Positions 12,630 through 14,545 of a stretch of DNA of 64,000 nucleotides are shown here, piece after piece. The stretch is from Escherichia coli (GTDB lineage Bacteria; Pseudomonadota; Gammaproteobacteria; Enterobacterales; Enterobacteriaceae). A model generated the notes under the pieces. It did no database searches and was not told the DNA's origin. It was given only the letters and a program-made list of their open reading frames with translations. Each line of letters starts with the position of its first letter. The first letter of the stretch is position 1. Position numbers and translations under genes: made by a program. The stretch is taken from NCBI RefSeq assembly GCF_001677475.2, contig NZ_CP015229.1; one strand, 5' to 3'.

Positions 12630-13100
12630 ATGTACAAGAATACTGTTAAGACTACTACTCCTTTCATCCTGTTAGGTTTTGATGCTGACAGCTTCCACAA
12701 TGACAAGTTAATGAAGATCTTTGTTGAACGTGGTTACAACATTCTTTTCAACTCTGACGAATCTCATTTCTCTAGTGCATGGTATGCGTTTTGCCGTAAT
12801 AAGAAGCCGACCATCGTTGTTAACTGCTTCACCGATGAAGACCGCTTAAAGTACCAGAATCTACCAGCAATTATTGTTCGTGATGATCTGCCGTTTGAAG
12901 TCCGGCCAGGTGACATTGATCTGGGTAGCTTCTTAACTCTTCGTGAACTGGATGAAGCAATGTTTAACTACGGTAAAGAAACCGCTCAGGAAGCCCCAGA
13001 ACAAGATGAAGAAGATGAGGAAGACGAAGACTACGCTCCAATCTGTTTCTCTTCTCAGAATGGCTTCTACGGTTACGATGAAGGCTTAGATATGCTGTAA
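12630..13100 (+). CDS. Hypothetical protein (156 aa) with strongly acidic C-terminal tail
   Basis: ORF with RBS AGAGGA; tail QEAPEQDEEDEEDEDYAP. Confidence 0.5.
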   Translation: MYKNTVKTTTPFILLGFDADSFHNDKLMKIFVERGYNILFNSDESHFSSAWYAFCRNKKPTIVVNCFTDEDRLKYQNLPAIIVRDDLPFEVRPGDIDLGSFLTLRELDEAMFNYGKETAQEAPEQDEEDEEDEDYAPICFSSQNGFYGYDEGLDML

Positions 13101-13135
13101 GTTAGGTCAACCCTTTGGCGTCCTGTCAAGGGGTA

Positions 13136-13164
13136 TTGACAAAATTTTCTGACTTTTTTATGAT
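13136..13164 (+). promoter_or_regulatory. Near-consensus sigma70 promoter (TTGACA, 17 bp spacer, TATGAT)
   Basis: -35 TTGACA at 13136-13141 and -10 TATGAT at 13159-13164; second TTGACA at ~13174. Confidence 0.5.
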
Positions 13165-13222
13165 TGTCGCACTTGACAACTTTGAACCGATTTGACCTAG
13201 ATTTGTAAAGGGGATGTTAATT

Positions 13223-13375
13223 ATGAACGCTACCAAGAAAATTGATGGACGTAAAAACCCGAACCGCAAACCGTGGACACCTAACCTGAATTTCTCAATG
13301 GTTGATTTCCACGAGCGCAAACGCCTCATTCAAGAAGAAATTGATCGCTGTCTCGCTGAATCTAAAATTAGATAA
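13223..13375 (+). CDS. Small basic protein (50 aa)
   Basis: Hand-translated ORF MNATKKIDGRKNPNRKPWTPNLNFSMVDFHERKRLIQEEIDRCLAESKIR; RBS AAAGGGGA; downstream of the strong promoter. Confidence 0.4.
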   Translation: MNATKKIDGRKNPNRKPWTPNLNFSMVDFHERKRLIQEEIDRCLAESKIR

Positions 13376-13462
13376 AAATTTCTTTATAAATAAAATTGTT
13401 CCGGTTGAGATGCCGGAACTAGGAGGATCAAATCACTAAACCGTTTAAGGGGAATTAATACT

Positions 13463-14305
13463 ATGAATACTGTTACTGTTATGAATACTGCTGTTAAAAC
13501 TGCTTCCGTGTCTCTGGTTGTTGATAACACCAAACCGCTGACCATGTCTACCCGTCAGATCGCTGAATTAACCGGAAAGAATCATAACGATGTACGCCGT
13601 GATTTTCGTAACATGCTCGAATCTTTACAGAAGGGTAGCAAACTTGCGGGAGGCAATCTAAGCAATTCTGCTCAGATTGGTTTTTATACAGAATCGACCT
13701 ATAAAGATTCTAAAAATCGAGTTCAACCGATGTATGAACTGGATGAAGATCTCTGTAATACTCTGGTTATGGGATACGATGCACCGCTTCGCTTCAAAAT
13801 TGCTAAAGAATGGCGTTTGATGAAAGAAGGGAAAGCTAATGTTCCGGTTAATCCATATGAACACTTTGAAGAAACCGATTGGATCGAACTGGCATTAGAG
13901 AAAACCCGCGAAAATAAACGTCTGGTTGAATTGCATGTTCGTAAAGCTATCGACACTCACAGCTTAACCCGTCTTTTGGGCGAAAAACGAGGCTCTACGA
14001 AGGTACAAATGATTCTGAAAGGTTTATGTGCTGCTGGTGTTCTTGAGCGTCGTCTGGATGCTTCTGGTAAGCCTAACGGCTATGATCTGCTTCCTCCTGG
14101 TTATATGTTCGCTCGTATGTCGGCACACGGTCAGATCGAGTTCACTGCTGATGCTATCCCGCATCTCGTAAAACTCGGATTGCTTGAAGAAGAAAAGGCC
14201 GCAACTTTGAAATTGCCACAGCCGAACAACTCACGAGCAATTGTCAATAACACTGCTTTGCTGATTCGTCAGAATGCTGGATCACTGGAACACTTTGGAC
14301 TGTAA
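13463..14305 (+). CDS. Rha-family phage regulatory protein (280 aa)
   Basis: N-terminal MSTRQIAELTGKNHNDVRRDFRNM matches the Rha/pRha signature as recalled; terminator-like hairpin at ~14314-14339. Confidence 0.6.
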   Translation: MNTVTVMNTAVKTASVSLVVDNTKPLTMSTRQIAELTGKNHNDVRRDFRNMLESLQKGSKLAGGNLSNSAQIGFYTESTYKDSKNRVQPMYELDEDLCNTLVMGYDAPLRFKIAKEWRLMKEGKANVPVNPYEHFEETDWIELALEKTRENKRLVELHVRKAIDTHSLTRLLGEKRGSTKVQMILKGLCAAGVLERRLDASGKPNGYDLLPPGYMFARMSAHGQIEFTADAIPHLVKLGLLEEEKAATLKLPQPNNSRAIVNNTALLIRQNAGSLEHFGL

Positions 14306-14545
14306 TAATTTTTAGCCTCGCCTAGTGCGGGGCTTTTTCGTATATAGAGCTATTCAACGATGAATTTCTCGAAAGAATCAATAACTTAGATAGATCCGCT
14401 GAACTTTAAGCACATCCGCTCAGAGTTGAGCACATCTCCTCAAAATTGAGGGCATCCCTCCAGTTTTGGATGCATGTATAGATCAGTCCAGAGTTGGTCC
14501 TATGTGCATAAAAAAAGGCCAACCCCGAAGGATTGGCCTAGAGAA

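Follow-up and report, generated by a model that had tools for sequence, protein, structure and literature searches.

Introduction

Proteins of the Rha family, of which the rha products of phages φ80 and P22 are known members, interfere with phage growth in hosts deficient in integration host factor. Here we analyze positions 12630–14340 of a 64,000-nucleotide stretch of Escherichia coli DNA (contig NZ_CP015229.1 of assembly GCF_001677475.2; hereafter the window), an interval that carries a gene of this family and is the rightward early, regulatory arm of a crippled temperate siphophage prophage. Its promoters call to mind further phage systems. Late promoters of T4 have the consensus TATAAATA at positions −13 to −6, its first base being little conserved (PMC1524935), and MuC of phage Mu is an activator of phage promoters that have only a −10 element, and binds the β sliding clamp (PMC12867686). 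The explanation that we favor, tentatively and at somewhat less than an even chance, is that the interval is a nested early unit in which the Rha protein acts as an early activator that links a repressible σ70 promoter to boxes of the form nATAAATA. Most counts given below refer to a comparison set of 39 related loci; L042 denotes a divergent relative, and L001 is the element of E. coli PI7 (NZ_CP074033, approximately 753,090–788,222).

Compared with the Rha family (Pfam PF09669), the protein encoded here is typical in its N-terminal domain, which scores above the Pfam cut-off, and in its temperate-phage setting. It differs in its fusion to a C-terminal winged-helix-like domain that is confined to this phage family, in falling short of the NCBIfam TIGR02681 cut-off (39 versus 45.95 bits), in that non-Rha helix-turn-helix (HTH) domains can take the place of its N-terminal domain in relatives, and in that its gene lies in the early region behind a probably operator-bearing promoter and not in a late operon. 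With T4 late promoters, which work with gp55, gp33, and the gp45 clamp, the locus shares the identical 8-mer with its variable first base, the lack of a −35 element, and boxes that stand co-oriented 34–128 nt before gene starts. The boxes here, however, belong to a temperate, siphophage-like prophage whose packaging genes are of lambda type. The likeness to Mor and MuC of Mu is one of concept, namely a small DNA-binding activator, promoters with a −10 but no −35 element, and a short terminal hydrophobic/acidic peptide; there is no sequence similarity, and no MuC-type TTAT-N5-6-ATAA site is evident here.

Two strong outward σ70 promoters stand about 1.35 kb apart, the rightward one at 13136, set in symmetric repeats, and a leftward TTGACA-17-TATACT at 11764–11792 (−), aimed at the genes of a 60-aa and a 328-aa protein. 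By analogy with PL and PR of lambda, they may be viewed as a divergent pair around an iteron array, a structured block, and the first gene of the interval (gene 1). Unlike in lambda, no CI/Cro-like genes were recognized here, an iteron origin, the conserved structured block and gene 1 lie between the promoters, and the half-sites resemble TTGACA, which is the −35 consensus. In the corresponding cassette of PI7, there are two leftward promoters that match the consensus at 12 of 12 positions. A conserved structured leader upstream of an operon ending in an Ant-like gene is likewise a feature shared with the immI region of P1 (c4-icd-ant) and the immunity leaders of P4, but by analogy only, as neither antisense/target complementarity nor an Rfam match was found here.

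Results

The three open reading frames (ORFs) on which the original prediction for this interval was built are all present on the + strand. They are gene 1, which encodes a 156-aa orphan protein (12630–13100), the gene of a basic peptide of 50 aa with a pI of 10.0 (13223–13375; a 53-aa reading starts at 13214), and the gene of a 280-aa Rha-family protein that is predicted to bind DNA (gene 3, 13463–14305). The predicted promoter, TTGACA-17-TATGAT, was likewise confirmed at 13136–13164 (+), where it agrees with 11 of the 12 consensus positions. The number of such sites alone is not significant: the 64 kb has three with at least 11 matches, where 1.08 would be expected, and three or more are seen in 21 of 200 block shuffles. 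We judge the promoter to be real because it is conserved in relatives, not because of this count. The strict pattern is found in 30 of the 39 loci, and most of the others have both hexamers with a change of 1 nt in the spacer or of one base; the counterpart in L042 reads TTGACA-18-TAGAAT. The intergenic stretch 13101–13222 is better conserved than the adjoining genes.

From its position, this σ70-type promoter would serve the peptide gene and the Rha gene. Both lie downstream of it, in keeping with the proposal of one operon behind the promoter, but gene 1 has to be taken out of that operon: it ends at 13100, and it cannot be driven from 13136 because the promoter lies between it and the peptide gene. 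No terminator-like site was reported on the + strand between 12630 and 14305. The rightward unit ends at an intrinsic-terminator-like hairpin with a T-run (14314–14339, +); relatives have a hairpin and T-run with another stem sequence at the same place, facing the convergent terminator of a leftward 85-aa gene, and convergent terminators follow the Rha gene in every relative inspected. Read in this way, the interval would be a nested unit with three starts and one shared terminator.

An array of TTGACA-type dyads surrounds the promoter and is probably its operator. The array (13103–13199) consists of TAGGTCAA at 13103–13110, CTGTCAA at 13123–13129, TTGACAA at 13136–13142, which contains the −35 hexamer, a further TTGACAA at 13173–13179, and TTGACCTA at 13192–13199, and its outer and inner site pairs are symmetric about approximately 13151, within the promoter spacer. 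The −35 hexamer is part of a palindrome, C/TTGTCAA-N6-TTGACAA (13123–13142), which is unique in the window and is kept in L042 as TTGTCAA-N6-TTGACAA. Because the −35 element lies within this conserved dyad array, a repressor probably keeps the σ70 promoter silent in the lysogen. A regulatory role for the region, as proposed earlier, is therefore reasonable, with a conserved promoter in an operator-like dyad, but the island and helper phage in which that role had been framed are not (see below). A leftward promoter on the other arm of the palindrome was rejected, as it has no −10 element, and so was a LexA box in CTGTCAA...TTGACAA, which does not fit CTGT-N8-ACAG.

The other starts of the unit would be boxes of the sequence TATAAATA. 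One of these, at 12582–12589 (+), lies 48 nt upstream of gene 1 and is a probable promoter element; a second, at 13385–13392 (+), lies 78 nt upstream of the Rha gene. No other 8-mer of the early region, the iterons apart, is as strongly over-represented as TATAAATA, which has seven copies in 7.65 kb versus 0.58 expected; none of 500 local dinucleotide shuffles reaches seven copies. The heptamer ATAAATA occurs 11 times in the 23-kb element and not at all in its 11-kb structural block. Ten of the 11 copies are intergenic, each aimed at a gene start on the same strand at a distance of 34–128 nt (nine copies) or 246 nt (one copy). The genes behind the boxes are a 101-aa gene, terS (with GATAAATA), a small membrane ORF, the 60-aa gene (two boxes), gene 1, the Rha gene, a 200-aa gene, terL, and an LprI-like gene. 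The box before the 200-aa gene, GATAAATA at 15435–15442 (−, 34 nt from the start), reads TATAAATA in L042, and that before terL, AATAAATA at 15460–15467 (+, 37 nt from the start), is the same in L042 and in almost every aligned relative. The remaining boxes are at 8259–8266 (−), 8489–8496 (+), 9087–9094 (+), 11408–11415 (−), 11467–11474 (−), and 30206–30213 (−).

Gene 1 is preceded by the exact 8-mer in 38 of 39 loci and the 60-aa gene in 34 of 35; the bases on either side of it differ. Upstream of the Rha gene it occurs in 29 of 39, the other ten having a single mismatch (CATAAATA where inspected). L042 keeps the boxes at the same places, and its gene-1 box directly follows a terminator-like hairpin and T-run. 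The boxes lack a −35 element, and no register within the 8-mer gives σ70 both A−11 and T−7; some of them overlap a weak candidate −10 just downstream (AATAAT, TAAAAT).

A hairpin, GTTCCGG-N8-CCGGAAC (13398–13419, +), starts 6 nt after the 13385 box and is followed by TAGGAGGA. Its stem is invariant and its loop variable, and an alternative allele has a different hairpin at the same position that also starts with GTTCCG (our pairing). It is the probable 5′-terminal stem-loop of a box-initiated Rha mRNA. T4-type spacing places +1 of the Rha transcript at 13398, the first base of the hairpin; this start does not discriminate, however, because a σ70 reading with TATAAA as the −10 element predicts nearly the same one. 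On the minus strand at 11388–11402, a hairpin GAGCG-GTTAA-CGCTC with a T-run starts 6 nt after the 11408–11415 box, a short way before the 60-aa gene. This hairpin may act as an attenuator or may serve the leftward arm as a 5′ hairpin, in a mirror image of the box and hairpin of the Rha gene.

The assignment of the 280-aa protein to the Rha family was borne out by a profile search, in which Pfam PF09669 (Phage_pRha) matched residues 28–121 with 60.3 bits (E 2.8e-16; cut-off 29.9), the alignment spanning profile positions 1–90 of 91. In the structural model, an N-terminal Rha winged helix (residues 28–125) is predicted to be followed by a long helix (137–163) and a second winged-helix-like domain (~166–237); the tail, which ends in SLEHFGL, is of low confidence. 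All 39 loci and L042 have the gene, and its C-domain is conserved; the variable sites in its C-half are distributed 87/63/128 over the three codon positions, a third-position excess. The type of N-domain showed no co-variation with neighboring genes, the iteron cassette, or the terL type. A search of PDB sequences returned chance-level matches only for the Rha alignment and nothing for the 200-aa protein, and there was no PADLOC match for any protein of the module.

What follows the Rha gene varies among relatives. In L017 the slot (6463–6933) is taken by a 156-aa protein with a Rha N-domain just above the Pfam cut-off and a C-terminus with a weak, sub-threshold DUF559-like match, resembling restriction endonucleases (Vsr-type nuclease). 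In the window, four tandem units of ~20 bp (14394–14470), each a small palindrome such as CTCAAAATTGAG, lie between the convergent terminators. Related units are found in some relatives, but others with the same N-domain have none, and for that reason the units were rejected as an obligatory target of the Rha N-domain.

All proteins encoded in the Rha slot end in L-x-x-F-G-[LI], as in SLEHFGL (14285–14305). The same ending is found in two kinds of optional downstream gene (DLAIFGI and LCDMFGI; L003 8005–8541, L006 7946–8632) and in the serine integrase (LLQEFGI in the window, 28012–28035; PLQEFGI in PI7). An FG[ILV] ending is found in 45 of the 3,405 ORFs that are 40 aa or longer across all loci, and all 45 fall into these three groups. 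SLEHFGL, LLQEFGI, DLAIFGI, and LCDMFGI have in common a leucine, a phenylalanine, and a terminal hydrophobic residue, and fit exactly neither the clamp-binding motif QL[SD]LF of E. coli, to which QPDLF of MuC may be added (PMC12867686), nor the pattern [ST]LDFL[YFL] of the T4 tails with which we compared them (gp55 ...SLDFLYEAND, gp33 ...TLDFLL). The resemblance is loose, and the ending could be a clamp-binding-like tail or, just as well, a common degron.

Gene 1 was said to encode a protein ending in a poly-acidic run of the kind found in DNA mimics and in tails that interact with single-stranded DNA-binding protein. In fact, the run EQDEEDEEDEDY occupies residues ~124–135 and is followed by 21 conserved residues, APICFSSQNGFYGYDEGLDML. 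The tip reads ...FYGYDEGLDML, of which ...GYDEGLDML is kept even in homologues below the 50% clustering threshold of the library, where the gene-1 product of L042 also falls. The core, which is modeled as an α/β sandwich (approximately residues 10–115), has a pI of 5.3; residues 117–156 have a predicted local distance difference test score below 50 and form a disordered acidic linker, to which strong acidity is confined. What remains of the earlier suggestion is thus a disordered linker with a conserved hydrophobic/acidic tip, and not an acidic run at the extreme C-terminus, an oligonucleotide-binding (OB) fold, or an overall acidic surface. Most likely the product is a protein–protein adaptor next to the iteron origin. 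Among relatives, variable sites in gene 1 fall 67/34/113 on the three codon positions, again with a third-position excess. An ORF at 12479–12586 was rejected as coding, given a 1-nt indel there in relatives.

The element as a whole is a remnant of a temperate siphophage family, and the reading as a helper-dependent island was dropped. It interrupts codB at 7844 and 30913 as an insert of ~23 kb, and the flanking chromosome is of E. coli type (prpBCDE, the split codB, codA, and a LysR-family regulator gene at the position of cynR). Besides a small-terminase-like gene (terS, 8528–9079, PHROG 57) and terL of gpA type (15497–17404, +), the insert has genes for a lambda-family portal, a protease–capsid fusion, a fiber protein, an IS3-family transposase, and a large serine recombinase. 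The fiber gene region (23347–27482) encodes a C-terminal trimerization domain of T4 gp34, and the protein is cut by the IS3-family insertion (26329–27482) to 975 aa versus ~1200 aa in PI7. About 14 kb of PI7 tail and lysis genes are gone from the window copy between IS3 and the recombinase, a loss that we attribute to an IS3-associated deletion. To the right of the fiber gene, PI7 has an annotated tail protein, an 810-aa ORF at the tape-measure position, a 1248-aa tail-tip protein, holin-like small ORFs (our reading), a gene of the D-Ala-D-Ala carboxypeptidase family (endolysin-like), and the recombinase.

Intact members of the family, of ~35 kb like that of PI7, have their own terminase, portal, protease–capsid fusion, tail, endolysin-like, and serine integrase genes, as opposed to the IS3-truncated window copy. 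Satellites are missing essential genes for the virion or for lysis across a whole family and depend on a helper; this family is not of that kind, because its intact relatives encode head, tail, endolysin-like, and integrase proteins. The usual satellite genes (AlpA, a primase–rep fusion, capsid-size redirection) were not recognized among the scanned ORFs, the capsid–fiber interval being scanned only partly. Nor was the idea of an island's helper-sensing switch borne out, as the same module stands in complete relatives; nothing tested points to sensing of a helper by Rha, and the type of N-domain co-varies with no neighboring gene.

Related elements are present in 57 of 5,426 complete E. coli genomes, with identities of up to ~91% over most of the query, and are inserted in hicB, in ycdX, or elsewhere; IMG/VR holds an identical copy (L007). 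Their gene layout is syntenic in the 39 loci and in L042. A megablast search of the region against phages gave zero matches, the top match of the capsid in the phage database was 45%, and the 200-aa protein, which is the signature of the family, had no tblastn match in 50,697 phage records, so that no cultured phage there carries it. No CI/Cro-like, Q, or N proteins were recognized in the prophage family. A literature search returned nothing on this element, on hicB-integrated prophages with serine recombinases, or on prophages or satellites run by T4 late promoters.

Among the ORFs of the window, PI7, and L042, no homologue of T4 gp55 or gp33 was detected (phmmer E>0.27), and the 200-aa protein was rejected as gp55-like at an hhalign probability of 0.1%. 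GenBank record PQ671644 (Escherichia phage DCP80, L002), labeled as a T4-like Gaprivervirus, has at positions 1–22500 a siphophage-type head–tail module with a gpA terminase, a portal, a protease–capsid fusion 45% identical to that of the window, a tape measure, a J-like tip, and 11 co-oriented TATAAATA boxes. Beyond this module, the record consists of T4-like sequence in scrambled order, in which rIIA, spackle, and other genes are duplicated, and the whole probably arose when two entities from one lysate were assembled into a chimera. It was rejected as evidence of a physical linkage to T4-like DNA; given the scrambling, co-assembly proves nothing. The tip DEGLDML of gene 1 loosely resembles the C-terminus ...DDGLDDLLAGL of a DCP80 ORF annotated as a single-stranded DNA-binding protein. 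The T4 thread as a whole (box, absence of gp55, gp34-type domain, tails, gene-1 tip, and DCP80) is circumstantial.

Discussion

A Rha-family gene behind a good promoter in the early region of a prophage is ordinary; the wiring around it is unusual and robustly observed. In the explanation that we tentatively favor, the TATAAATA box at 12582 would serve gene 1, and on derepression the σ70 promoter at 13136–13164 would fire first to yield the peptide and the Rha protein. The TATAAATA box at 13385 would give a separate mRNA, opening with a stabilizing hairpin, for the Rha gene alone. The Rha protein would then boost its own box promoter and switch on the boxes of terS, of the 60-aa and 328-aa replication genes, of gene 1, of the 200-aa gene, and of the late operon that begins with terL. 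We propose the Rha protein as the activator because it occurs in every locus examined, has DNA-binding folds and a box of its own, and because its gene is the sole regulator-like one behind the operator-bearing σ70 promoter. The precedent of MuC (PMC12867686) supports the idea of a small activator for −10-only phage promoters.

Several observations weigh against this explanation. We infer both the factor that reads the boxes and its link to the Rha protein, as we do the repression at the operator, probable as it is, by a putative repressor. A search for a shared activator site upstream of the boxes found none. The Rha N-domain is swapped among relatives for at least six types, including non-Rha HTH domains, at constant boxes, so that either the conserved C-domain or a different protein would have to recognize the boxes. 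As a box reader, the invariant 200-aa protein is no less plausible. Proteins related to Rha carry the annotation “anti-repressor”, and for gene 1 the fold match is weak and uninformative.

An unlikely alternative, though the one that fares best, is that the Rha protein is an antirepressor of the Ant/Bro type, or another trans-acting factor, and not an activator of the promoters of the phage itself. The variable N-domain would be aimed at repressors or DNA, whether of this prophage or of others resident in the cell, and the conserved C-domain would be a module for anchoring or oligomerization. The best PHROG families are annotated “anti-repressor Ant”, the tblastn matches in temperate phages of Pseudomonas and Klebsiella bear the names Ant or anti-repressor, and N-domain swaps without co-variation of cis-elements suggest an external, fast-evolving target; Iyer, Koonin and Aravind are said to have described in 2002 such domain shuffling as typical of Rha/Bro-N/KilA-N proteins. 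These annotations are transferred names, however, and the C-domain is unrelated to ANT and KilA-C, with no such Pfam match. An antirepressor would also leave the box promoters without a regulator, and the Rha gene is universal and fixed in position, unlike typical accessory ant genes.

A broader idea, which we regard as doubtful, is that the family runs on the logic of T4 late transcription, with bare nATAAATA boxes before essentially every unit, tails that tether proteins to the clamp, and a reader that is either phage-encoded or a T4-like late σ factor. In the phage-encoded version, the Rha protein or the 200-aa protein might be the reader, as an unrecognized promoter-specificity factor or an activator tethered to the clamp. 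In the external version, even the defective copy would be a T-even-responsive parasite or defense element.

The specific case in which the boxes are read by the gp55-type late σ factor of a superinfecting T4-like phage, so that the element is switched on as parasitism or abortive defense, seems to us decidedly unlikely. It has in its favor that the box is the T4 late consensus TATAAATA, down to the tolerance at the first position (PMC1524935), without a −35 or a σ70 register with both A−11 and T−7 in the 8-mer, and that searches of the window, PI7, and L042 turned up no homologue of gp55 or gp33. The gp34 trimerization domain of the fiber gene, the related head–tail module with its 11 co-oriented boxes in the DCP80 record, and the Rha, optional-gene, and integrase tails, loosely like SLDFLY of gp55 and TLDFLL of gp33, point the same way. 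But the resemblance of the tails is a loose one, and the DCP80 record is scrambled. Intact relatives appear autonomous, with a late operon that itself depends on a box, and a phage-encoded reader is the simpler assumption. Moreover, T-even phages degrade cytosine DNA and block its transcription.

Less probable still is that the Rha gene, together with the optional gene behind it, belongs to the accessory cargo of a recombination hot spot, serving superinfection exclusion or anti-phage defense, and not to the core regulators. The extra genes after the Rha gene are varied, including one that combines Rha with the weak, sub-threshold DUF559-like match, and the diversity of the N-domain is like that of an arms race. 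On the other hand, the gene is present in 39 of 39 loci and L042 with a conserved C-domain, a dedicated promoter and a hairpin, and the module has no PADLOC match. Finally, that the interval is the switch of a helper-dependent island or satellite, whose Rha protein senses or manipulates a helper phage, is highly improbable: Rha-type proteins do take part in regulatory conflicts between phages and the window copy has no tail and lysis genes, but the IS3-associated deletion explains the missing genes, and complete relatives with tail, tail-tip, endolysin-like, and integrase genes carry the same module.

This prophage family, uncultured yet widespread in Escherichia, Shigella, and Salmonella, keeps units that include both terminase genes behind a T4-late-type box. 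If a phage-encoded factor reads the boxes, a small temperate phage would have a late-transcription system of a new kind, a finding comparable to the recent one on MuC and the clamp; if they are read by a T4-like gp55, resident prophages could listen to T-even infection.

Further features of the element

The 50-aa peptide is under purifying selection (variable sites 5/6/18 over the codon positions), and its homologues are restricted to this phage family. In about half of the 39 loci its slot is taken by an unrelated 110-aa gene and in one by a 61-aa ORF, and in L042 it is empty. As the slot is variable or empty in relatives, the peptide is not essential to the switch and is presumably a dispensable accessory. 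The slot alternatives (the 110-aa gene and two extra genes) had no Pfam match.

The 60-aa, 76/85-aa, and 200-aa genes (11164–11346, 14546–14776, and 14806–15408; all −) encode proteins that share a small HTH-like module (...GIS.AQFYK.LKK..IK...), of which the 200-aa protein is a tandem duplication. The latter is among the best-conserved early proteins, with 88–100% identity in E. coli-type relatives and 67% in L042. At the thresholds used, no Pfam or PHROG family was found for gene 1, the peptide, or the 60-, 85-, and 200-aa proteins; these, the 328-aa protein and the slot alternatives also gave no informative PADLOC or NCBIfam match, the only PADLOC match being a marginal one of the 328-aa protein.

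The genes terS and terL are 6.4 kb apart, an unusual layout in which the whole replication and regulatory region lies between them and each has its own nATAAATA box. In this region, an array of about 12 copies of CCTACAC(T) (11824–11997) forms the iterons; the cassettes of relatives differ, with TTTTGCCCCTGAA, CCCCG-type repeats, or, in L042, ATCCCTAG. The acidic coiled-coil protein of 328 aa (10060–11046, −) co-varies perfectly with the iteron cassette, being 95% identical to that of L005 and 20–27% to others, and the two are probably initiator and origin. The protein ends in YAYAA (LGLAA in L003), like an ssrA-type ClpXP tag.

Between the iterons and gene 1, a block at 12340–12500 is near-invariant across the E. 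coli relatives and folds better than its shuffles (z −3.3), without an Rfam match; a scan of 7500–31500 at E≤1 returned zero Rfam matches. It has adjacent TTCG-loop hairpins, ATCCC-TTCG-GGGAT and GCAACC-TTCG-GGTTGC, and a third hairpin, GGGC-TTTA-GCCC, which is replaced by GGC-GAA-GCC in some loci; L042 keeps CAGTC-TTCG-GACTG. The block could be a structured leader, an RNA, or an origin element. Direct repeats of GAAAGG(G)ATTTT and palindromes of TTCTAGAA(AGG) also lie between the iterons and gene 1 (12240–12300; 8790–9110 in L042); they are kept in this divergent relative and are probably protein-binding sites of an origin or control region.

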